Virus record (IMG/VR): IMGVR_UViG_2690315922_000010
Origin: a virus
Taxonomy: Duplodnaviria > Heunggongvirae > Uroviricota > Caudoviricetes
DNA length: 18,250 nt
Direction: 5' to 3' (one strand)
This document shows positions 2,209 through 18,134 of this stretch, piece after piece. A program made the translations under genes and the position numbers. Under the pieces are notes generated by a model. It had not been told where the DNA came from. It searched no databases and saw only the letters and a program-made list of their open reading frames with translations. Numbering within the stretch: the first letter of the stretch is position 1; each line of letters begins with the position of its first letter.

Positions 2209-3423
2209 ATGACAATTGCTGATGACTTATCAAGATTAGCGCAGATTATTAACGGAGCCTCAAGCAGAGTTGAGGGCTACTACACTGTCATAAGTCTTGA
2301 AGAAAGCATTGTTATTGTAAATAGTTCTGAAATAATTAGACTGTTACAATCTATAGGTTATAAAAAGGCAACAACCTGCATCGAAAATAATGAAATTTGG
2401 CTAGATCGCCAAGCTTCATCTTGGGATGACGCTATAATTTATGAGAATGTTGAGTCTTTTTGGTCTAGAGTAAACACCCAAAACGCTCTTCCGAAAAATT
2501 ATATCATCGGAACGCCGTTAATACTCCCTACTTCTAAGAATGAAAGCATCGAAAAAATCCATATTTTCTTTATGTGGAAAGATATCCTTTCATTAATTGC
2601 TGATCATCATAACAGTGACTGCTCTGTCTTATTTTTCACCAATGAAGACAAAAGTTATACAGTCGAACTCACGCATTTTTTACAATATAGCGAGATTAAT
2701 CGCTTATCGAACTCGTCTCTTAAATATGAAATTATAAAGGAGCTTCTCGACACAATAAAAATCAATGATTTACACAAAAGCGAGCGCAAGCTCGTTATAC
2801 GCTCAGCCATAAACGAAGTATTTAAAGCAAATGGTACGTTCAATTTCTTTGACTTGCTTAACTCTACTGAACTCGTCAGGAAAAAATATGATGAACTATA
2901 TGAGATTTACACAAAGAGGTTTTCTGTAAATAAAATTCTTAACGAACTCGATGAGAAAAATCTTGAGTTCACGAGTAAAATTAACGAATTCATATCATCT
3001 AATCAGACAAAAGCATTGACTATTCCCGGTGCATTAATAGCAGCTGGTGGCTTAGTGAAGGCTAATGAAACAACCGAAGCAATATTGATTATCGCAGGAC
3101 TTTGGATGATAAAAAAAGTCAATTACATTTCTATTGAGATATTCAATGAAACATTCGACAACTTACGTTCTCGAGTGGAGTCCGCTTTCGATAAGTATTT
3201 AAAGTTTGAAGAAAATAAAGAAATCAAAGATAATGCAGATAGTATTAAGAGTAGCATTACAGGTTTGATTGATAAAGCTAAAAAAAGGATGAGAACTGTT
3301 AAATATCTCGCATCAGCCATGTTTTATGGAGGCCTTATTTACGTTGGATATAAACAGTTCCCAGTCTTTTTTGAAAAATCGGCAGTAAATCTATTTTATT
3401 TTTTATGCCATACTATAAGCTAA
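2209..3423 (+). CDS. Membrane-anchored protein of unknown function, 404 aa; cassette gene 2
   Basis: ATG 2 nt after the stop of gene 1, suggesting translational coupling. About 265 aa soluble N-terminal domain, then a hydrophobic helical hairpin (about aa 268-303, ALTIPGALIAAGGLV...AILIIAGLWMI) and a third hydrophobic segment (about aa 366-380, YLASAMFYGGLIYVGY). AT-rich like gene 1. No recognisable catalytic motif. Confidence 0.75.
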   Translation: MTIADDLSRLAQIINGASSRVEGYYTVISLEESIVIVNSSEIIRLLQSIGYKKATTCIENNEIWLDRQASSWDDAIIYENVESFWSRVNTQNALPKNYIIGTPLILPTSKNESIEKIHIFFMWKDILSLIADHHNSDCSVLFFTNEDKSYTVELTHFLQYSEINRLSNSSLKYEIIKELLDTIKINDLHKSERKLVIRSAINEVFKANGTFNFFDLLNSTELVRKKYDELYEIYTKRFSVNKILNELDEKNLEFTSKINEFISSNQTKALTIPGALIAAGGLVKANETTEAILIIAGLWMIKKVNYISIEIFNETFDNLRSRVESAFDKYLKFEENKEIKDNADSIKSSITGLIDKAKKRMRTVKYLASAMFYGGLIYVGYKQFPVFFEKSAVNLFYFLCHTIS

Positions 3424-3759
3424 CATTGCTAAACAGCCGTCAACAAACCCCATTGCAGTTTGCAGTTCCTTCCTAATTGTGCCATCAGAGCATTTTCTCT
3501 TCTTCGCAATAGTGCGTAATGAGATACCGATAACAAAGTGGGCGATGATGAGCTCATATTCCTCTGGTTTATACCTTCTCAACCGAGCCACACAACTGTC
3601 TATCATGATGCCTTCATCATCATCGCACTGGAGACGTGACTTTTTACCGTGTGGTAGAAGCCCCTTGAAACCAGCCGCTATCGGCTGCCAGTCGACACCA
3701 CTATTTTCTGCTGCAGCCCAAGCCCCCCAACGATCTAAAACTTCGTACATATCACGCAT
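3403..3759 (-). CDS. Q: Late-gene antiterminator Q (phage 21/QuuD-like family), 118 aa
   Basis: MRDMYEVLDRWGAWAAAENSG...AAGFKGLL...RLQCDDDEG...CSDGTIRKELQ matches the small Q family of E. coli lambdoid prophages as I recall it. Lies between the replication genes and the lysis genes. ATG overlaps the stop of the upstream gene (TGATG). Confidence 0.8.
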   Translation of the reverse strand: MRDMYEVLDRWGAWAAAENSGVDWQPIAAGFKGLLPHGKKSRLQCDDDEGIMIDSCVARLRRYKPEEYELIIAHFVIGISLRTIAKKRKCSDGTIRKELQTAMGFVDGCLAMLAYSMA

Positions 3760-4001
3760 CAGCGCAGTACCTCCTGCACCAGTTTTTCAAACTTTCCAAC
3801 TTTGGTTTCCAGCTCTGCCACACAATCAACGAGCTCATCCACCGCTTTTTGTGCGCGATGTTTCGCCTGCATCAGTTCCCTGAGCGCTGGCACCATATCC
3901 CGACGAATGGCATCTTTTGTTACACCTGTTTTTTCCAGTTGTTCCGCCTGTCGCAACATTTCCTGTGCCTGTTTACGTAGTTGTTCAGGGGTAAAAGTCA
4001 T
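3759..4001 (-). CDS. Hypothetical small coiled-coil protein (about 80 aa), nin-region position
   Basis: The ORF track starts at a TTG (4016); I prefer the ATG at 4001 (MTFTPEQLRK...). Charged helical sequence. Its stop overlaps the Q start, and its 5' end abuts the DnaB stop. No clear Shine-Dalgarno. Confidence 0.5.
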   Translation of the reverse strand: MTFTPEQLRKQAQEMLRQAEQLEKTGVTKDAIRRDMVPALRELMQAKHRAQKAVDELVDCVAELETKVGKFEKLVQEVLR

Positions 4002-4012
4002 TGTCTGGTTGT

Positions 4013-5404
4013 TCAAAAGAAACGCTCCATCTTACTGCTGTCAGTTCGTTTGTTGCTGTATCTGCGCGGCTGGGGCTGCTGCATTGGGGTGGAAAGAATC
4101 TGTGCGCTTTCCTGATCCACAGGCAGAAAATGTCCGTTATAAAAACGCCGGTAAATCGTCCCCAGAGAACCGTTACGTTGTTTCGTGATATTGATTTCTG
4201 CTATGCCCCGGGCCTGCGTATCCGGGTTGTACACTTCATCCCTGTAAAGCATCAGAATGATGTCTGCATCCGCCTCTATTTCTCCGGAATTTTTCAGGTC
4301 TGAGTTCATGGGGCGTTTATTGGGTCTGGACTCCACACCACGGGAGAGCTGGCTCAGCGCAATTAAGGGAAAACCACCGGATTTTGCCAGGCCTTTAAGC
4401 CCCTTTGAGATTTCACCCACGGCAAGGTCATGACGCCCCGTGGTTCGGGTTTTTATCAGCCCGAGATAATCAACCACCACCAGCGCCGTTTCCGGATATT
4501 TAATCAGGTGGTGTTTCGTTGTTGCGCATATCTCGTCAATGGTCAGGTTCGCCTGGTCCACCATCCAGATATTGCGCCCGGTCATCCGCCCCACCCCTTG
4601 TGAGAAACGCGCCCAGTCTTCGTCTTCAAAGTGAGCGACAGATTTCAGACGTGATACCGGCATTCCTCCAGCCGCAGATACCATGCGCTCACCAATCTGG
4701 ATGTTCGCCATTTCCATTGTGAACAGAAGAACACCATGCCCCTGCTCAGTCACCTTGTCGATGATATCCAGCGCCAGTTCAGTTTTGCCCATTGACGGAC
4801 GAGCCGCAATAAATACCAGGTCGCCGGGCTCCATGCCGCCTGTTTTTGCGTCCAGTTCATCAATACCGGTCATCAACGTCCTGGATTTCTCCAGCCCCTG
4901 ATTCCGGCATTCAACACGCTCAACCACTTCCGGAAGCACATCATCAATATGTACCGGCTGAATAACGCCCTTTTCCGTCGACAATGAGGCCATCATGTTC
5001 TGCGCATCCTTCAGGGCATCTTCAGCTGCTTCACAGGTATGCGCATCACGTAATTTCTGCAACGCCTCATTCAGCGTCTTTTCTGCATCACGCAGTGCGG
5101 CATTGCGACGCAACGCTGCAACATAGTGCTCCAGTGAAGACTTCACCCAGGTTTTACGCCCGGTATCAGTAATCACCGGAGCAAGTTCCGGCATCTCATT
5201 GCACAGCAGCACAGGATCAATCACACCTGAAACACGAGCCTGTCTGCAGATGCCTGTGTAGATATCCCGATACGCTCGTACAGAAAAAACGTCCGCAGGT
5301 AGTGTGGCCAGAATATCCATCACTTCAGGATCTGCCCCACGCAGAAAGAACGCGCCAATGACAGCGCCTTCCAGGTCATCGTTACGCCAGACTGGTGTTG
5401 TCAT
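4013..5404 (-). CDS. DnaB-family replicative DNA helicase, about 463 aa
   Basis: Walker A AARPSMGKTELAL and other DnaB C-terminal RecA-like motifs (LVFIAARPSMGKT, VVVDYLGLIK, LSQLSRGVESRPNKRP). Start set at ATG 5404, which overlaps the stop of the upstream loader gene (ATGA), rather than the track's GTG at 5512. Confidence 0.9.
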   Translation of the reverse strand: MTTPVWRNDDLEGAVIGAFFLRGADPEVMDILATLPADVFSVRAYRDIYTGICRQARVSGVIDPVLLCNEMPELAPVITDTGRKTWVKSSLEHYVAALRRNAALRDAEKTLNEALQKLRDAHTCEAAEDALKDAQNMMASLSTEKGVIQPVHIDDVLPEVVERVECRNQGLEKSRTLMTGIDELDAKTGGMEPGDLVFIAARPSMGKTELALDIIDKVTEQGHGVLLFTMEMANIQIGERMVSAAGGMPVSRLKSVAHFEDEDWARFSQGVGRMTGRNIWMVDQANLTIDEICATTKHHLIKYPETALVVVDYLGLIKTRTTGRHDLAVGEISKGLKGLAKSGGFPLIALSQLSRGVESRPNKRPMNSDLKNSGEIEADADIILMLYRDEVYNPDTQARGIAEINITKQRNGSLGTIYRRFYNGHFLPVDQESAQILSTPMQQPQPRRYSNKRTDSSKMERFF

Positions 5405-6279
5405 GCAGCCACACCTCTGATACGAGAACGGTAGCTGGGCCAGTTGAACGACAACCAGTTGCGCCCCCCGTCTGTGATCCTGTCGGCAATGCGGGGGCTG
5501 ATGAACGCCCACAACTCTTCCGGTGAAAGGTTGCTGATCAGGATGGTGGGCAGGATACTTTCGTACCGGGCATTGATAATTTCCTGCAAAATAGCCATTT
5601 CAGCCGCGCTGCCAAACTGAACACCAACTTCGTCGATGATCAGCAAATCCATTGACGCATAATGCTCAATAACTTCATCCGCTGTTTTTTCGCTGTCATT
5701 CCGCCAGCAGTTTTTCACAGCACGGGTAAGGCGCATCACGTCGGTGATCTCCACGCTGGCCAGATGATTACGGATGATGTGTTTTGCCATAGCCACAGCC
5801 AGATGATTTTTCCCGGTACCGCAACTGCCAGTCATAACAAGACTGGTGCCGTTCTCCAGCATATCTGGCCAGTTCTCCGCATAGCGGCGACAGGCTGCAA
5901 GATTTCTGGCTGCGTCAGGATTAACCTCCAGATAGTTATCAAACTCACAGTCCCGAAAACGCAGGGCAATTCCGGCGTTATCAGTCAGCTCTTCCGCCTT
6001 GAGGGACGACAGCTCCATGGTCAAATCGTTGGCCTCAGCGATCAAGCAGTCAGGGCAGCATGAAATTTTTTCTCTGTCCTCGCCATTGCGATCGCTCCAC
6101 ACCAGTATATGCGTATGGTATTTACCGTGTTTTTCGCAATACCCGCGACCTTCACGCATCAGGCAGGAACGATAAGGCCATGGCTTTTCGCCCTTCTGAG
6201 CAAATGCAATCTCTGCCCGTAACTCATCCATTCGCGCCTGTAGTCTTGTTTGTTGTTCACGCAGGTTAAACGTCATCAT
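5401..6279 (-). CDS. DnaC/IstB-like AAA+ helicase loader, about 292 aa
   Basis: Walker A GSCGTGKNHLAVAMA and Walker B LLIIDEVG. N-terminal Cys/His-rich segment (CEKHGKYHTH...CCPDC). ATG at 6279 preceded by GAGGTGA; the track start at 6288 is a GTG. Confidence 0.85.
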   Translation of the reverse strand: MMTFNLREQQTRLQARMDELRAEIAFAQKGEKPWPYRSCLMREGRGYCEKHGKYHTHILVWSDRNGEDREKISCCPDCLIAEANDLTMELSSLKAEELTDNAGIALRFRDCEFDNYLEVNPDAARNLAACRRYAENWPDMLENGTSLVMTGSCGTGKNHLAVAMAKHIIRNHLASVEITDVMRLTRAVKNCWRNDSEKTADEVIEHYASMDLLIIDEVGVQFGSAAEMAILQEIINARYESILPTILISNLSPEELWAFISPRIADRITDGGRNWLSFNWPSYRSRIRGVAA

Positions 6280-6289
6280 CGCTGTCACC

Positions 6290-7198
6290 TCAGAATGTCA
6301 ATTTGTCACTGGATTTACCGAATTTGTCAGACATGGCACCAAGGCCAGACAGGACATCGACCTGTCGCTGTCGCCCACCTCCGGGAGCGGCTGGCTGTTG
6401 CCAGAAATCTTCGAAGTGACGATCGGGGCCAAAGAACGTCGCAGCCTGCTTCACGAACTGTGTGCCGGTATTTCCTGTAGCACGTACCCAGGCGGCATAA
6501 CGTCTCACACCATCAAGCATGGTCTCCGGTTTTATTCCCTCCCTGAGACGGGCTTTCCAGGCTTTGAAGGCTGCTGACTTGGAATTGCCACCAGCACGTT
6601 TGGGATATTCCTGCCAGGCCTGTTCAAATTCCGGTGAATATTCCTGTCGGGCAGAACGCGCTGGTGCAGACGCGTCAGCGGATGCGCCAATAGTGTTTTT
6701 ACTCTCTGTAGTATTCTCTGAAGTAATCTCTGTTGTATTCTCTGTAAGATCGAAATTGGTTTTCCCTTCTCCGCGGCGAGGGGTTTCCCGTGTCCGCGGT
6801 GAAGGCTTGCCCTCCTCCGCGAAATTGGGTTTTACAGTTTCCCGAAAACGGGTTTCCCCATTTCGGGAAAACTGATTGTTTTCATTGATAATTTCATTAA
6901 GGCGCTCACAATCTATACGGTAGAACATTTTGTGCTCAAGACGCTTGTTGGTTTCAACCAAAATGCCTCTGGACACAAGATGCTTACGCGCTACAGCCTG
7001 TTGTTCAAATGTAAGTCCGGTTTCGTGTTGTATCTCTTCACGCGTTTTATGTACGCCTTCCGCTGCATGTGCTTTATCCTGCCAGTAAAAAATCTGACCA
7101 AAGAAAATAACAGCGTGCGGACTTCCCATGTATTTAACGAGCCCAGGGTAATAAGCAACCGGATGCCCAAAATCGAGCAGAAGATCAGACGGACGCAT
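6290..7198 (-). CDS. Replication initiator / replisome organiser (lambda O analogue), about 302 aa
   Basis: Immediately upstream of the loader and helicase genes. ATG at 7198 preceded by GGGAGGTGG. The mid-region encodes a repetitive peptide (TENTTEITSENTTESKNT) over tandem DNA iterons, as in lambda O/ori. Family assignment is by position and architecture. Confidence 0.75.
   Translation of the reverse strand: MRPSDLLLDFGHPVAYYPGLVKYMGSPHAVIFFGQIFYWQDKAHAAEGVHKTREEIQHETGLTFEQQAVARKHLVSRGILVETNKRLEHKMFYRIDCERLNEIINENNQFSRNGETRFRETVKPNFAEEGKPSPRTRETPRRGEGKTNFDLTENTTEITSENTTESKNTIGASADASAPARSARQEYSPEFEQAWQEYPKRAGGNSKSAAFKAWKARLREGIKPETMLDGVRRYAAWVRATGNTGTQFVKQAATFFGPDRHFEDFWQQPAAPGGGRQRQVDVLSGLGAMSDKFGKSSDKLTF
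6703..6870. repeat. Origin-like iteron array inside the initiator gene
   Basis: Four tandem 12-bp repeats starting at 6703, 6715, 6727 and 6739 (TCTCTGTAGTAT, TCTCTGAAGTAA, TCTCTGTTGTAT, TCTCTGTAAGAT). Downstream are GGKTTTCCC repeats (about 6768, 6781, 6850) and an inverted repeat TTCCCGAAAA...TTTCGGGAAA (about 6839-6872). Confidence 0.6.
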
Positions 7199-7418
7199 AG
7201 CCACCTCCCAGACGCTTAAACATTTTCCCGGACTGAAAAGCCACCAGCGGATAACTCAGGGTATGAGTACGTCCCTGAACCTGGCAGACAACCTTCTGGC
7301 TTTCTGTATTGACCAGGCAAACCCGCAGAACGTGGCCGTTGCTGGTGGTGAACCACTGCCCCACACGGGGGCAACGGTTGTATCGGTGATACAAGGAATT
7401 AACGACGCGGCGAATCAT
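7185..7418 (-). CDS. Hypothetical protein, 77 aa
   Basis: ATG at 7418 preceded by GGGAGGT and overlapping the stop of the upstream gene (ATGA). Basic and Cys-containing. The track start at 7433 gives a slightly longer form. Confidence 0.55.
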   Translation of the reverse strand: MIRRVVNSLYHRYNRCPRVGQWFTTSNGHVLRVCLVNTESQKVVCQVQGRTHTLSYPLVAFQSGKMFKRLGGGYASV

Positions 7419-8077
7419 GGGCGCACCTCCCATTGATTACGGCGGAAAGCGGTGTGACTGAGACTGGTTTCAGTTTCATGGAATGCTTCAATGCAGCTCT
7501 CGTAGTACCGCATTGTGCGCAGACTTAACCCAAGCTGAAGCATCATCAGGCCATCAAGGGTGATGTAATAACCACGCAGGGAGTCACCATAGATGTGATA
7601 AGTACCCGGTATGAAATTGCGGGTAAAAAATTCGCGCGAGCAGTTCAGATACTCGATTTTGTCGACGATGTTCTGGTGCATGCGCTTGAAATGGCAGGCA
7701 ACATGCAGGGAGAAAATAACGGCCTTGCCGTTGACGACTTCGATTTTCAGGTATGGGGAAGTTGGGACTGTAGCCATGATGGCAGCCTCCGATAACAGTG
7801 AATTACCTTCACCACCGGAAACGCCAATTTCGCTGGTGGTGAACTGAACGGGGTTGGCGTAACCGGCGTTATCGGAAACCGGCGCACCTTTCGGTGCCCC
7901 CGTCCAGCCCACCATAATTTGGGTGTGCGCAGACGCAGACGATAAAAAAGACGCTGGCGCGTCATATATCGCCGATAACATTTCCAGGACGCCAATCCCG
8001 GCACCCGCTTTATAAGGTGCTTGGACAGTGTACCGTCCCGAAATTGCAGAATCAATATTTAGGCTTGAAACATTCAT
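7415..8077 (-). CDS. Hypothetical protein, 220 aa, no recognisable domain
   Basis: Longest ORF in the interval and translationally coupled to the downstream 77-aa gene. Weak ribosome-binding site at its own start, so the start is uncertain. Confidence 0.5.
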   Translation of the reverse strand: MNVSSLNIDSAISGRYTVQAPYKAGAGIGVLEMLSAIYDAPASFLSSASAHTQIMVGWTGAPKGAPVSDNAGYANPVQFTTSEIGVSGGEGNSLLSEAAIMATVPTSPYLKIEVVNGKAVIFSLHVACHFKRMHQNIVDKIEYLNCSREFFTRNFIPGTYHIYGDSLRGYYITLDGLMMLQLGLSLRTMRYYESCIEAFHETETSLSHTAFRRNQWEVRP

Positions 8078-8155: not shown

Positions 8156-8180
8156 GCCGGGTCACTACCCGGCTTTTTTT
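8156..8180 (+). terminator. Canonical intrinsic terminator, plus-strand polarity
   Basis: GCCGGGT (8156-8162), loop CACT, ACCCGGC (8167-8173), then TTTTTTT (8174-8180). On the minus strand the hairpin follows the Rha stop but has no U-tract. Confidence 0.45.
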
Positions 8181-8893
8181 CACCGCTGCCAGCCAATAAC
8201 CTGAAATAACCCCATTTTCGGGTGATACCAGCGAGTCCCTCGCGGTTCTGCTTCCTCCATAACCCGATAAAAAGCAGCCATAAACGGTTCCACGGCAACA
8301 ATTGCGCGACGTGATAACAATCCGTCCGGCGTCATAAACTCGTGGGTATCTGTAGGAATTTGATAAGCGTTCACCAGATTGCGGCATTTATCATCTGACA
8401 AACCGGTTTTTGCTTTCAGTTGGCGATATCCGGCATAGCCCTCACGAATAGTGCCCTTTTTGATTTGCTCGACTGTTTCAGCAACGTGGCTGACTTTTTC
8501 TTCCACCTGAGTGATCCGTTTCTGCTGGCGAACAGCTTCAAGAGCCATTGCAGCAACCATTTCGATTTCGCTCATTGGCTTACGGATCTGTTCTTCCAGT
8601 TCGCGCCAGCGATCTACCAGGCGGGCTGTGAATTCGGGGCAAAGCTGAGCGACAACAATGATGCTGTCGCGTTTGCCTCGTTCACCTTCGAAAAGATAAT
8701 GCTTACTTTTTTGAGTTAAACCTAACCCATTGATATTTTCAGAAATCCCCATTGGGGGAAGCTGAATAATCCTTCTTTCAGCAAGGCGCTCAATGGATTG
8801 TTTAACTTTGTCATGGCGGCTGCCCACCAGCTCTGCGATTTCAACACTGGTCATGGATGCTTTGCCGTTAAAAATTGCGGTGTTCACTGCCAT
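8180..8893 (-). CDS. Rha-family phage regulatory protein, about 237 aa
   Basis: N-terminus MAVNTAIFNGKASMTSVEIAELVGSRHDKVKQSIERL is typical of the Rha (PF09669-like) domain. ATG at 8893 preceded by TAAGGAG; the track's upstream extension is rejected. Confidence 0.75.
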   Translation of the reverse strand: MAVNTAIFNGKASMTSVEIAELVGSRHDKVKQSIERLAERRIIQLPPMGISENINGLGLTQKSKHYLFEGERGKRDSIIVVAQLCPEFTARLVDRWRELEEQIRKPMSEIEMVAAMALEAVRQQKRITQVEEKVSHVAETVEQIKKGTIREGYAGYRQLKAKTGLSDDKCRNLVNAYQIPTDTHEFMTPDGLLSRRAIVAVEPFMAAFYRVMEEAEPRGTRWYHPKMGLFQVIGWQR

Positions 8894-9006
8894 CTCCTTA
8901 CGGATAAATTCTTTTAAAATTCCGCACATTCGTACTTGTTGGTGCCGAACCTTCCTTTAGTTATCCTTTTGATCCCTATAAACAAAAGAACCAAAGGAGG
9001 TTCGAC

Positions 9007-9707: not shown

Positions 9708-10400
9708 ATGACATTTTCAGAACGACTTGATTTAGCTATGCGCAACGCAAAATTTACGCAAGGTAGGCTGGCCAAAGAAGTGGGTATGGCTCAGTCCAGT
9801 GTTAATCAACTACTTAACAAAGCCAACGGTTCCAGAAAAACAGTCGAAATAGCAAAAGTTTTGGGCGTTAACCCGGAATGGCTCGCATCGGGTGTTGGTC
9901 CAATGGAAATCGTGACCTCTGCAGACTCACACCAAATACGTAACATTTCTGAAGATTGGGTTACTGATTCGTATGTCGTGGATGTTTTAGACATCAGATA
10001 TAGTTGCGGACCTGGTAGTTATAACTCTGATTTTCCTGACATTGTCAGATCTATAGCGATAGAACCAGGATACGCATCAAGAGTTTTTGGCGGCAGACCA
10101 GCATCAGCAATCAAAGCAATAAACGCCCACGGCGACAGTATGAAAGGCACAATAGACCCTGAAGACTTGGTATTTGTAGATGTATCAGTTCGCACATTTA
10201 ATGGTGATGGTATATACGCCTTTACATACTCTGGAACATCGCACATCAAAAGACTTCAAAAAATCAAAGATACTCTAACGGTGATATCTGACAACCCAGC
10301 TTACAAGGATTGGGCTATCGAACCGGAAGACTTCGAACAACTTCACATTGACGGAAAAGTAATTGTCAGTTGGCCTATGACACTACACCGTTTTGCATAA
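9708..10400 (+). CDS. cI: CI-like prophage repressor (XRE HTH N-domain + S24 LexA-like peptidase C-domain), 230 aa
   Basis: N-terminal HTH (LAKEVGMAQSSVNQLLN). C-terminal autoproteolysis domain with the GDSM motif (Ser nucleophile) and a downstream Lys. AGGGGAGGA ribosome-binding site. Divergent from cro-like. Confidence 0.9.
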   Translation: MTFSERLDLAMRNAKFTQGRLAKEVGMAQSSVNQLLNKANGSRKTVEIAKVLGVNPEWLASGVGPMEIVTSADSHQIRNISEDWVTDSYVVDVLDIRYSCGPGSYNSDFPDIVRSIAIEPGYASRVFGGRPASAIKAINAHGDSMKGTIDPEDLVFVDVSVRTFNGDGIYAFTYSGTSHIKRLQKIKDTLTVISDNPAYKDWAIEPEDFEQLHIDGKVIVSWPMTLHRFA

Positions 10401-14813: not shown

Positions 14814-16127
14814 ATGGATAAAGTCAAATATCCAACAGGCGTCGAAAACCACGGCGGCACATTACGCATCTGGTTTAATTTTAAAGGTAAACGTGTCAGG
14901 GAAAATCTTGGTGTCCCTGACACTGCCAAGAACAGGAAGATCGCCGGGGAACTACGGACATCGGTATGTTTTGCCATCCGCACAGGAAGCTTTGATTATG
15001 CTGCACAGTTCCCTGACTCCCCTAACCTTCAGGCTTTTGGGGTAAGTAAAAAAGAAATTACGGTGAAAGAACTTGAAGAAAAATGGCTGGATCTGAAACG
15101 AATGGAAATCTCTGCAAATGCATTCAATCGCTATGAATCCGTTGCAAGAACGATGGTTCCGAAAATTGGAGGCAGCAGACTGGTGTCATCGGTAACTAAA
15201 GAGGAATTGCTGTATATCAGGAAAGATTTGCTGACCGGGTATCAGAATCCAACGAAAAACAAAGCAGCAGCAAAAGGACGGAGCGTCGTTACTGTAAATT
15301 ATTACATGACGACAATCGCTGGAATGTTTCAGTTTGCTGCAGATCACGGTTACTTAGAAGCAAATCCCTTCCAGGGAATTAAGCCTCTTAAAAGAGCCAG
15401 GGCAGAGCCAGATCCGCTAACTCGTGACGAATTTATTCGCCTGATAGATGCTTGCCGACATCAGCAGACGAAAAACCTGTGGTCATTGGCTGTGTACACA
15501 GGAATGCGTCACGGTGAACTGGTCTCCCTGGCCTGGGAAGATATCGATCTGAAAGCAGGAACTATTACTATCAGGCGCAATTATACGAAACTCGGTGAGT
15601 TCACTCTACCTAAAACTGAAGCAAGTACAAACAGGGTTGTGCATCTTATCCAGCCCGCTATCAGTGTCCTGAAAAATCAGGCTGAAATGACAAGACTGGG
15701 TAAGCAGCACCACATCAAGGTTCAACTACGTGAATATGGGCGTTCAGTGAATCATGAATGTACTTTCGTATTTAACCCCCAGGTGGTTAGAAAAAGCAAA
15801 CAGGTCGGTTTTATCTACAAGGTAGATTCTATTGGCGACTCATGGGAAACAGCCATTAAGCGTGCGGGCATCAGGCACCGGAAAGCATACCAGTCACGAC
15901 ACACTTATGCGTGCTGGTCGTTATCTGCCGGAGCAAATCCAAGCTTCATTGCCAGCCAGATGGGCCATGCAAGTGCCCAGATGGTGTTCAATGTATACGG
16001 AGCATGGATGACTGACAGTAATGCAGAACAGATCGCAATGCTGAATCAGAAGCTGGCAGATTATGTCCCAATGATGCCCCATAGTCACCAAAATGGCACA
16101 AAAGGCTTATTAAAATCAGTAAGTTAA
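14814..16127 (+). CDS. int: Tyrosine integrase (lambda Int-like, IntR/IntE-type N-terminal arm-binding domain), 437 aa
   Basis: GGAGG ribosome-binding site. N-terminus PTGVENHGGTLRIWFNFKGKRVRE...GSFDYAAQFPDSP is typical of E. coli lambdoid integrases. C-terminal catalytic region has conserved Arg, His-x-x-Arg (SRHTYA) and Tyr. Last gene before the host junction. Confidence 0.9.
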   Translation: MDKVKYPTGVENHGGTLRIWFNFKGKRVRENLGVPDTAKNRKIAGELRTSVCFAIRTGSFDYAAQFPDSPNLQAFGVSKKEITVKELEEKWLDLKRMEISANAFNRYESVARTMVPKIGGSRLVSSVTKEELLYIRKDLLTGYQNPTKNKAAAKGRSVVTVNYYMTTIAGMFQFAADHGYLEANPFQGIKPLKRARAEPDPLTRDEFIRLIDACRHQQTKNLWSLAVYTGMRHGELVSLAWEDIDLKAGTITIRRNYTKLGEFTLPKTEASTNRVVHLIQPAISVLKNQAEMTRLGKQHHIKVQLREYGRSVNHECTFVFNPQVVRKSKQVGFIYKVDSIGDSWETAIKRAGIRHRKAYQSRHTYACWSLSAGANPSFIASQMGHASAQMVFNVYGAWMTDSNAEQIAMLNQKLADYVPMMPHSHQNGTKGLLKSVS

Positions 16128-16610: not shown

Positions 16611-18134
16611 ATGAAACGTGCAATCAGTTACATCCGATTCAGTTCTGAGAAGCAATCCCGAGGTGATTCACTACGCCGACAATCGAAGTTGGTCACTGAC
16701 TGGCTTAAAGCTCGTCCTGAGTATCATCTAGATGAATCTCTTACCTTCCGTGATTTGGGGAAAAGTGCTTTTAGCGGTAAGCACTTGAAAGGTGGCTTAG
16801 GCGACTTCTTAACCGCTATTGAGAAAGGGCTTGTAAGAGCTGGTGATACGCTCTTGATAGAGTCTCTTGACCGTCTGTCACGGCAAGATGTAGACCGAGC
16901 AAGTGAACTACTCAGAAACATCCTTCGCTCTGGTGTCGATGTGGTCACATTATCCGATAATGAACACTACACAAAGGAATCTCTTAAAGACCCGTTAGCC
17001 TTGATTAAGTCAATCCTGATTATGCAACGAGCGCATGAGGAAAGTTTGAGGAAGTCTGAGCGTATACAGGCTGCATGGGATGCAAAGAAAGAAGCCGCTA
17101 AAGCTGGTATCAAGATTTCTAAGCGTTGCCCTGCATGGCTTAAGCTTAATAATGACCGTAAAAGTTTCTCTGTAATCCCTGAGAAGGTAGCGACGGTAAA
17201 GCGATGCTTCCAGCTACGGTTAGAGGGTAAGTCTATCTTGGAAATTGTCAGAACTCTTAATAGTGAGGGACATCAGACGCTTAACCAGTACAAAGCGGGT
17301 AAATTTAGTCAGACTTCTGTGCAAGACCTTTTGAAGAATCGCTCTGTAATTGGTTATTTCACCCCCAAAGGCTGTGAAGAAATTTCAAACTATTACCCCT
17401 CTATCATCCCTGAGACTGATTTCTACAAAGTCCAGCAACTATCATATCCTCGTTACGGTAGAAAACCTGCTTCAGATAAACCATTGAGTGTGAATCTTTT
17501 CAAGGGTGTTATCCGTTGTTCTGAATGTGGTCATGCTCTGATTATCACAGGCTTTAGCGATACAAGGAACGGGATATATCGCTGCCCTCTTCGTAATGAA
17601 AACCGTTGCAGTGCTAAGGGTCTGTCACGTAAGCAAACTGATGGAACATTACTTGCTTTGCTCTCTCGTCTTGACCGATTTGAGAATGGTACAACGAATG
17701 CCATTGATACACTGAAGCTACACCGTGAACACATTTCAAACAATATTGAGAAGCTGGTACAACTCTCACTTGAAGTCGAAGACCTGACCGCTATTACCAG
17801 CAAGTTAAAACAGTTAAAGGGGGAGTTATCACAGGTTGATGCTGATATTGAGAAGGAGGCACAACGCCTTAAATCTATTGACGTGGGTTGTTTGTCTGAT
17901 TGTGACTTGAGTACAAAGGCGGGAAGGATTGAAGCACAACTGATTATTCGTAGTGCTGTTAAAGAAGTTGTTTTAAACACTGCTAAACGTCGCTGTAGAG
18001 TAACTTTTCACAATGGCAAGGTGATTGACCTGTCGATAACAGAAAACCCCGCTCAGGACATTACAGAGGCTGAAAAGTCGCTTACTGAAATTGCTGAGAA
18101 GGGTCTGTTAGATGTTGACGCCTTCCAACTGTAG
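16611..18134 (+). CDS. Large serine recombinase (serine integrase), 507 aa
   Basis: N-terminal resolvase-type catalytic domain (AISYIRFSSEKQSRGDSLRRQ with Ser nucleophile, LIESLDRLSR). Recombinase domain, Cys-rich zinc-ribbon (CSECGH...YRCPLRNENRC) and C-terminal coiled coil. Confidence 0.9.
   Translation: MKRAISYIRFSSEKQSRGDSLRRQSKLVTDWLKARPEYHLDESLTFRDLGKSAFSGKHLKGGLGDFLTAIEKGLVRAGDTLLIESLDRLSRQDVDRASELLRNILRSGVDVVTLSDNEHYTKESLKDPLALIKSILIMQRAHEESLRKSERIQAAWDAKKEAAKAGIKISKRCPAWLKLNNDRKSFSVIPEKVATVKRCFQLRLEGKSILEIVRTLNSEGHQTLNQYKAGKFSQTSVQDLLKNRSVIGYFTPKGCEEISNYYPSIIPETDFYKVQQLSYPRYGRKPASDKPLSVNLFKGVIRCSECGHALIITGFSDTRNGIYRCPLRNENRCSAKGLSRKQTDGTLLALLSRLDRFENGTTNAIDTLKLHREHISNNIEKLVQLSLEVEDLTAITSKLKQLKGELSQVDADIEKEAQRLKSIDVGCLSDCDLSTKAGRIEAQLIIRSAVKEVVLNTAKRRCRVTFHNGKVIDLSITENPAQDITEAEKSLTEIAEKGLLDVDAFQL

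Follow-up and report, generated by a model that had tools for sequence, protein, structure and literature searches.

The segment 6666-6871 of an 18,250-nucleotide stretch of viral DNA (IMG/VR record IMGVR_UViG_2690315922_000010; the whole stretch is referred to as the window) probably serves an Eru7-type lambdoid prophage as its vegetative replication origin and is situated within the part of the replication initiator gene that encodes a disordered linker. It is composed of five 23-bp repeats, which are most likely the binding sites (iterons) of the initiator, and of four tandem 12-bp repeats (12-mers), for which we propose a role as an unwinding or helicase-loading element. As an origin it would be an ordinary member of a known origin class; unexpected are the conservation of the 12-mers as DNA across phyla and the fixed 23-bp phase. 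Tentatively, and with some doubt, we suggest that the 12-mers (core AGAnTAC) could represent an undescribed sequence-specific origin element, conserved at the DNA level across phage and prophage winged-helix initiators, abutting replicon-specific iterons of 23-bp phase, separable as a cassette and serving as an opening or helicase-loading site. The range of such an element would extend from Enterobacterales, Burkholderiales, Pseudomonas and Acinetobacter to Bacillus, Geobacillus and Staphylococcus. Searching full texts for the repeat sequences, the encoded peptides, iteron-type phage origins and the plasmid pBSG3 brought up no account of the 12-mers, and none of the fixed 23-bp phase came to light in the searchable literature, older or subscription-only papers being beyond the reach of both searches. 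The probable origin is hereby located for the widespread Eru7 class of Stx-type prophages, so that efforts to study or block phage replication, the driver of toxin gene dosage, have a concrete target.

Two classes of phased repeats within the initiator gene

The initiator gene occupies 6290-7198 on the minus strand (302 amino acids, ATG at 7198, alternative GTG start at 7204); all repeat coordinates are given for the plus strand unless stated, the sense strand of the gene being the minus strand. The original prediction had described four 12-bp TCTCTG-N6 tandem repeats followed by GGKTTTCCC repeats and an inverted repeat, and our analysis recovered each of these components. TCTCTG occurs at 6703, 6715, 6727 and 6739, an exact 12-bp period, and Tandem Repeats Finder (TRF) reported a 12-bp array at 6703-6746 (3.7 copies, 81% matches) as well as a 23-bp array at 6761-6821 (2.7 copies). 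Three perfect matches to GGKTTTCCC (6758, 6781 and 6850) and two degenerate copies (GGCTTGCCC at 6804 and GGGTTTTAC at 6827) form five GG(G/T)TTTCCC-type units in exact 23-bp register, that is, five 23-bp units of the GGGTTTCCC type spanning 6747-6861. The inverted repeat was located at 6838-6852/6856-6870 (87% complementary), and a second one, at 6765-6783/6787-6805, also lies inside the 23-bp array. Compared with 300 dinucleotide-preserving shuffles of the window, the identity observed at lag 12 was 28/36 (maximum of 23 in the shuffles) and at lag 23 it was 60/92 (maximum of 47), and none of the 300 shuffles reached either value. Whole-window counts of GGKTTTCCC or TCTCTGNNGTA alone were not significant; the repeat signal is one of clustering and phasing and not of motif number.

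The repeat region is wider than first noted, the 12-mers covering 6698-6745 and the 23-bp array 6747-6861 with a half-site reaching 6871. The proposed iterons follow one another on the minus strand as 23-bp blocks at 6839-6861, 6816-6838, 6793-6815, 6770-6792 and 6747-6769, recognised by their exact register, dyad symmetry and a position weight matrix (PWM), and an additional iteron half-site, TTTTCCCGAA, lies at 6862-6871. The proposed unwinding or helicase-loading element at 6698-6745 (minus strand), supported by TRF, a minimum of duplex stability and conservation, consists in sense-strand order of ACAGAGAATACA, ACAGAGATTACT, TCAGAGAATACT and ACAGAGAGTAAA, and a GATC site (6748) marks the junction of iterons and 12-mers. 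Some 20 bp past the 12-mers, the repeat search identified a GC-rich near-palindrome, GCAGACGCGTCAGC, at 6666-6679, which falls in a segment common to the window and the L17 gene of phage phiP27; by analogy with the inverted repeat right of the AT-rich region of lambda, it may be the far boundary of the origin. As had also been predicted, the coding strand specifies a repetitive peptide: the minus strand over the repeats encodes ...DLTENTTEITSENTTESKNT... within the open reading frame (ORF) 6290-7204, and the initiator translation across the repeat region includes ...FDLTENTTEITSENTTESKNT....

By nearest-neighbour stability, the least stable 48-bp duplex of the gene was found at 6690-6738 (-55.7 kcal/mol, against a mean of -68.3 and a standard deviation of 5.2), and the AT content at 6690-6740 is 65-70%, so an easily melted segment lies downstream of the 23-bp repeats. 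As single-stranded DNA, the 12-mers are unpaired and the iteron segment folds strongly (z = -4.8). An Rfam scan of the origin returned no RNA family. An internal promoter or small RNA was considered and dropped, the promoter and terminator scan of 6200-7500 being at chance level; the only terminator predicted in this interval is the iteron dyad itself.

The 23-bp repeats as likely iterons

Homologs were gathered with the N-terminal domain of the initiator, and scanning one genome per species yielded 26 loci by protein similarity alone, distributed over Yersinia, Morganella, Proteus, Serratia, Burkholderia/Paraburkholderia/Caballeronia, several Pasteurellaceae, Suttonella and Acinetobacter. In most of them, the N-domain is followed by repeats of the same type, which keep an exact 23-nt register up to the first 12-mer. 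The original prediction, which the absence of the repeats from functional homologous initiator genes would have refuted, was not refuted in this respect: both repeat classes are kept in the same order and phase in most of the 26 loci. A refined PWM gave 86 sites in 27 homologous loci, and five sites at 23-bp spacing in the window; of 64 spacings between sites, 58 were 23 bp and four were 46 bp, and five loci, mainly the most diverged ones of Pasteurellaceae, Suttonella and Acinetobacter, had no site above threshold. The family consensus on the sense strand is gGGgAAAgCCcatTTCGcGAAnn, every unit being a partial inverted repeat. Since 23 is not a multiple of 3, the 23-bp repeat exists at the level of DNA and not of the peptide.

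The sequence at the iteron position differs among more distant initiators. Those of phages mEp460 and HannyBb carry CATCGGGTCAAAATGAC-type units there, the phiP27 L17 gene carries CCnTCAGAATCTGAAC, and phages of Pseudomonas, Bacillus and Staphylococcus each have their own distinct repeats; among viral contigs at least eight sequence types of upstream repeat were distinguished, nearly all with a best period of 23 nt. Because their sequence varies with the type of N-domain, the 23-bp repeats form the replicon-specific class and are likely iterons; they are most likely the binding sites of the initiator. The original prediction of an iteron-type origin therefore stands as regards its location inside the initiator gene, and is revised in that the likely iterons are the 23-bp repeats, not the 12-mers as initiator-specific sites.

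It is unlikely that the assignment should be reversed, with the 12-bp TCTCTG-N6 units as iterons bound as duplex by the initiator and the GGKTTTCCC repeats as accessory sites for enhancement, bending or control. The 12-mers are indeed tandem, exactly phased and highly conserved, and since nearly all ORFs that carry them belong to one superfamily (81 of 85, see below), a conserved surface of the domain could read a conserved site. Nevertheless, they accompany N-domains that are beyond BLASTP detection of one another and have quite different upstream repeats, and because the same 12-mers go with divergent N-domains, replicon-specific recognition would have to reside in the 23-bp repeats. It is likewise the 23-bp repeats that possess the dyad symmetry and the spacing of about two helical turns known from the lambda O sites, whereas a 12-bp period sets neighbouring sites on different faces of the helix. 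Moreover, the 12-mers coincide with the duplex-stability minimum, and in the phiP27 L17 gene, a member of the same profile superfamily, another repeat replaces them.

Conservation of the 12-mers as DNA

Of 5,426 E. coli genomes, 1,673 match the gene, and most of these have the 40-bp stretch 6712-6751 at 97.5% identity; so do phages mEp460, HannyBb and PhiR42_1. The mEp460 initiator shows no BLASTP similarity to that of the window. Sensitive BLASTN searches with the 12-mer region or its consensus matched 115-120 phage records, from hosts comprising Acinetobacter, Klebsiella, Pseudomonas, Burkholderia, Xanthomonas, Vibrio, Erwinia, Bacillus, Geobacillus, Staphylococcus and Synechococcus, and 52 plasmid records in addition. 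Where the annotation at the match was informative, in phage and plasmid alike, it was nearly always a replication-initiator-type gene; some matches were unannotated, 'hypothetical' or 'transcriptional regulator'. An exact 23-nt pattern occurs in at least 120 viral contigs, where the 12-mers are nearly always found at amino acids 140-185 of an ORF of 290-370 amino acids with 23-nt periodicity upstream. All four distant phages inspected have their own repeats first and then ACAGAGATTACTACAGAG..., and the 12-mers directly abut the last iteron in 26 of the 26 related loci having a last-iteron anchor. Non-redundant arrays contain 2 to 5 copies, most often 3.

Because a mEp460-type initiator resides in a Qin-type prophage, the 40-bp stretch finds a match in about one third of complete E. 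coli genomes. In an E. coli B derivative with a Qin-type defective prophage (L036), a 321-amino-acid 'hypothetical protein' was observed at 3534-4499 beside a YdaT-family gene, and this protein is a mEp460-type initiator carrying the 12-mers. Further observations concern the array itself: the viral contig L113, with a near-identical origin, has five 12-mers against the four of the window, and three database proteins (P0013, P0018 and P0023) read the 12-mer DNA out of frame (ILQRLQQR; …ILQRLQQRILQR…) and then end early; frameshifting or faulty gene calling at the repeat is the likely cause.

The 12-mers are conserved as DNA, to judge from the following comparisons. The GC content at third codon positions (GC3) is 0.25 in the 12-mer arrays of nearly all hosts, despite a GC3 of the host ORFs from 0.27 to 0.76 (0.65-0.76 for the ORFs surrounding the arrays in Burkholderiales and a Pseudomonas phage, 0.35 in two Bacillus phages). 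In Pasteurellaceae, Suttonella and Acinetobacter loci chosen by protein similarity, the core AGAnTAC is retained at periods of 13-15 nt, so that copies are read in differing frames of intact genes, e.g. as NTLDYNTRLHT in Pasteurellaceae. We relied on GC3 and on these loci, since the information content per position is partly circular, the viral contigs having been selected with the pattern. An explanation without any cis role, in which the repeats merely encode a flexible, low-complexity Thr/Glu-rich linker expanded by slippage, appears extremely improbable. It would account for the period of 12, a multiple of 3 that gives a TENT/TEIT peptide repeat, for the predicted disorder of the segment and for the varying copy number in close relatives such as L113 with its five copies. 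The 23-bp repeats, on the other hand, cannot be peptide repeats; within the 12-mers, third codon positions show no less conservation than the first and second, in a sample partly selected by pattern, and ignore the codon bias of the host; the variants of 13-15 nt keep AGAnTAC in different frames with unrelated peptides; and a cassette on plasmid pBSG3 lies outside any initiator ORF.

This cassette was found on pBSG3 (L157, NC_014104), an 8.4-kb rolling-circle plasmid of Bacillus, in which about 170 bp (716-888) are homologous to phage PM1. Iterons of the PM1 type, three 12-mers and a further 45 bp or so make up the cassette, the homology stops at both ends, and no initiator ORF is present in this non-coding stretch. 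By its sequence, the cassette moved naturally as a non-coding unit. The 12-mer match of pBSG3 recurs in B. velezensis and Bacillus sp. plasmids 8.4-8.9 kb in size, and the cassette may be a captured phage origin that serves either as a decoy or as a hitch-hiking device. A search of plasmids for orphan copies of the window-type cassette found none.

A third explanation holds that the 12-mer block is mainly a joint for homologous recombination between N-terminal, origin-specific modules and C-terminal, helicase-recruiting ones, kept for their exchange rather than for initiation. The mosaic boundaries lie exactly here: phiP27 and PhiR49_2 share only 6290-6694 with the window, the sharing is limited to the 40 bp at 6712-6751 in about 1,500 E. 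coli genomes, and clusters of N- and C-terminal parts occur in several combinations. Weak selection of this kind would, however, neither keep a 12-mer constant from Staphylococcus to Burkholderia nor fix its distance from the last iteron, the orphan cassette of pBSG3 has no modules to exchange, and mosaic joints are an expected by-product of any conserved cis element. We therefore regard this explanation as very unlikely to be the main one; it is compatible with an origin function, which it does not exclude.

Past the 12-mers, some of the related loci show features of their own. Six Burkholderiales loci (L014, L018, L019, L020, L022 and L023) have a perfect DnaA box, TGTGGATAA, in the initiator gene about 25-45 bp past the 12-mers, in the version TGTGGACAA in L015; this type of DnaA box is absent from the window and its enterobacterial relatives. 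In three Pasteurellaceae loci (L017, L021 and L028) and in L013, C-rich tandem repeats (CCCCTTA / CCCCCCTTA, 2-4 copies, then GGGG) directly follow the 12- or 13-mers.

Initiator protein

The initiator matches phrog_270 'replication initiation protein' (E 3e-66) and no Pfam family at E 0.01. The original prediction had proposed a comparison with O-type proteins, and by sequence the initiator is not one: PF04492 Phage_rep_O gave no match even at E 1 (lambda O itself scores 5.7e-36), and none of BLASTP, hhalign and an iterative profile ties it to lambda O. To judge from these comparisons, the initiator is not a member of the lambda O family. In the AlphaFold2 model, residues 1-113 (winged helix, with helices and a beta wing) and about 180-256 (a helical C-terminal domain) are confident, and between them residues 114-177 have a predicted local distance difference test (pLDDT) score below 50 and form a predicted disordered linker. 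The N-terminal winged-helix domain (amino acids 1-113), encoded at 6860-7198 on the minus strand, is presumed to bind the iterons. The repeats at 6698-6871 fall on the codons for about residues 110-167, in the region of the inter-domain linker, as expected of an embedded origin; because residues 114-177 are predicted to be disordered, the coding constraint over the origin would be weak.

Homologs of the N-domain across Gamma- and Betaproteobacteria have 45-85% identity, and hhalign linked it to the initiator of Pseudomonas phage CF63a with 98.8% and to ORF012 of Staphylococcus phage 37 with 92.6% probability. An iterative profile placed 81 of the 85 ORFs carrying 12-mers in one broad winged-helix superfamily by iteration 4, with lambda O outside. 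As defined in this analysis, the superfamily is characterised by its N-domain, with the motif QxFYW...GxYK...ETGLS...ARKxL, phased repeats and at least two abutting 12-mers, all of which the window possesses. Foldseek against the PDB gave only weak winged-helix matches, among them the plasmid RepA_N initiators 5kbj and 4pql (E 0.07-0.16); a structural family assignment by this means was dropped, as the matches are of generic winged-helix type with E of about 0.02 or weaker.

Proposed mode of origin function

In the mode of initiation that we propose, the N-terminal winged-helix domain would bind the five phased repeats at 6747-6861, probably as dimers, and build up an O-some-like complex that distorts the DNA, as we infer from the covariation of repeats and N-domains and from the analogy with lambda. 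Stress exerted by this complex would then melt the adjoining 12-mer array at 6698-6745, the instability of which is a computed property of the duplex. Most likely, the initiator or the loader would keep the 12-mers open or recognise them as single strands, comparable to the 13-mers of oriC and RK2; because they are conserved at the DNA level, they would be a sequence-specific element and not merely AT-rich DNA, and by this analogy they are probably read specifically, as single strands. Finally, the C-terminal domain would recruit the DnaC-like loader and the DnaB-like helicase encoded directly downstream, a step suggested by the gene order and by the module common to phiP27.

Since the window and phiP27 share the C-domain, at near identity, and the loader type and differ in the element, the reader of the 12-mers would be independent of both. 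Candidate readers are a conserved surface of the initiator, in favour of which the ORFs carrying 12-mers fall mostly in one winged-helix superfamily and are linked by hhalign, or a universal host factor. Primase trinucleotides (CTG antisense, CTA/TTA sense), DnaA-trios and IHF/Fis sites as means of reading the 12-mers were inspected by eye and found no favour.

Several points weigh against the proposed origin function. The AT content of the 12-mers is only moderate at about 67%, their purine strand bias (58-65%) is mild next to that of lambda, and a second AT-rich patch lies on the other flank of the iterons in the window (6869-6917), which high-GC relatives do not have. No DnaA box (TTATCCACA, up to one mismatch) was found in 6200-7300, a departure from the pattern of iteron plasmids. 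Easy melting alone does not explain the strict conservation of the 12-mer sequence across phyla, and the searchable literature contains no binding, melting or replication experiments on this initiator family. In addition, iteron 3 of the window is altered at a conserved position: GGGAAA has become GGGCAA (plus strand GGCTTGCCC at 6804-6812, as opposed to GGCTTTCCC in six close relatives), a synonymous change (GGA to GGC, Gly) that hits the conserved A of the GGGAAA half-site and occurs in none of the six relatives. In lambda, only the iterons closest to the AT-rich region are required in vitro (PMC7466680).

Short DNA elements that stay near-constant within coding sequence across phyla, against codon bias, are rare, and the 12-mer array is one of them. 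If it were the melting or loading site, it would provide a shared handle on origin opening in a very large group of temperate phages and a simple sequence signature by which phage origins could be recognised in genomic and metagenomic data, and it would account for the mosaic joints in these initiator genes. Should the reading as a distinct element be true, small plasmids such as pBSG3 could capture the cassette of iterons and 12-mers because the element is separable.

Comparison with known origins

The origin of lambda lies in gene O and consists of four 18-19-bp dyad iterons, an AT-rich tract and an inverted repeat (PMC7466680; PMC5043065), the iteron units starting at 39034, 39054, 39078 and 39101. 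In agreement with the original prediction, the arrangement in the window is lambda-like, with repeats followed in the direction of transcription by an AT-rich segment inside the initiator gene. Both origins lie in the linker-coding middle of the gene, and both have partly palindromic direct repeats about two helical turns apart (20-24 bp in lambda, exactly 23 in the five units here) and an easily melted segment transcription-downstream of them; in both, the N-domain is paired with the repeats and the C-domain with helicase delivery, with mosaic exchange at the linker. Unlike lambda, the window has an initiator of its own, without detectable similarity to O and without a Phage_rep_O domain, and a phage DnaC-like loader with a phage DnaB-like helicase where lambda uses P and the host DnaB. 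Furthermore, the purine-rich AT tract of lambda is replaced by the conserved 12-mer array, and the iterons number five in strict phase. The lambda O and P proteins and DnaB all have single-strand-binding activity (PMC5043065). A phage called 'P27' in PMC7466680 has a lambda-like O protein and origin; its identity with the phiP27 considered here was ruled out, as it is not the L17 gene that shares the C-domain.

With iteron plasmids (RK2 oriV, F, pSC101 and P1) and oriC, the window shares a winged-helix initiator, phased direct repeats and, next to them, what is here proposed to be an unwinding element of short repeats. In unwinding elements with 12-13-nt repeats, including the 13-mers of oriC and RK2, the exact sequence matters (PMC5043065), and short direct repeats together with their conservation at the DNA level were observed for the 12-mers. 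In contrast to iteron plasmids, the origin here lies inside the initiator coding sequence and has dimer-like iterons and no DnaA box; in sequence, the 12-mers bear no relation to the 13-mers of oriC and RK2, and they are common across phyla.

The 'replisome organizer' origins of Gram-positive phages, i.e. oriL of SPP1 in gene 38 and the origins of the lactococcal phages TP901-1 and Tuc2009, likewise have direct repeats inside the initiator gene, and cloned copies can act in cis without the gene. This cis action parallels the orphan cassette on pBSG3, and the initiators of Bacillus and Staphylococcus phages carry the same 12-mers; SPP1, TP901-1 and Tuc2009 were not among the BLAST matches listed for the 12-mers (ACAGAGATTACT).

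Prophage context

The initiator, loader and helicase genes are all intact and, with loader and helicase directly downstream of the initiator on the same strand, form one operon followed by the Q antiterminator. The DnaC-like helicase loader gene (5401-6288, minus strand) matches Pfam IstB_IS21 (E 9.5e-16), the Bac_DnaA ATPase and phrog_50 (E 3e-90), and the DnaB-like replicative helicase gene (4013-5512, minus strand; true start likely near 5404) matches Pfam DnaB_C (E 1.5e-72), the DnaB N-terminal domain and phrog_19 (E 7e-118). Upstream of the initiator are regulators of the Ash/Rha and Rha/Ant types (Pfam Phage_pRha and Phage_ASH in 7415-8077 and 8180-8929), then a divergent cI-like repressor (9708-10400), early-left genes and the integrase.

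At the nucleotide level, the initiator gene is 96-98.5% identical to 'replication protein O' of many Stx1a/Stx2a-converting phages and of phage ASU11, and 95-98.5% identical to that of the Eru7 type (95.4% to LC567818 and 98.5% to LC567819). With Rha and Rha/Ash genes beside cI and downstream replication genes matching at high identity, the window is, on sequence grounds, an Eru7-type Stx-phage-like prophage replication region. It shares with the Eru7 region (LC567818; PMC8951638) the order cI, Rha/Ant, Ash/Rha, small ORF, initiator, DnaC-like, DnaB-like and Q, and a 65-nt 12-mer stretch that is 100% identical; it differs in having no stx genes, two other plus-strand ORFs after Q and the one synonymous change in iteron 3. 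Over the aligned stretch 6640-6900, the window and the Stx1_14040 phage differ at three sites, two of them past the 12-mers and the third being the change in iteron 3. In PMC8951638, the Eru type is defined by the genes adjoining cI and no origin is described; according to that paper, nothing is known of the proteins with which Eru phages replicate.

Just upstream of the replication genes, Rfam detected two matches at gathering level, the C4 antisense RNA RF01695 (82.8 bits, 7832-7919, minus strand) and isrK RF01394 (63.7 bits, 7944-8020, minus strand). They fall within the ORF 7415-8077, where the Ash and Rha families are matched as well; the two RNA matches suggest an antisense-RNA control of an antirepressor in the style of P1/P7 and raise doubt about the coding status of the 5' part of this ORF. 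Just past Q, the plus-strand ORFs 1031-2206 (phrog_3767 'nucleoid associated protein') and 2209-3423 (phrog_5023, function not assigned) may be cargo or defence genes; at this position, a related Stx1 phage has three hypothetical genes on the opposite strand and then stx1AB. At the prophage end, a tyrosine integrase gene (14814-16127, plus strand) is followed by a gene of the large serine recombinase/invertase type (16611-18134, plus strand), which may come from another element or from the insertion site.

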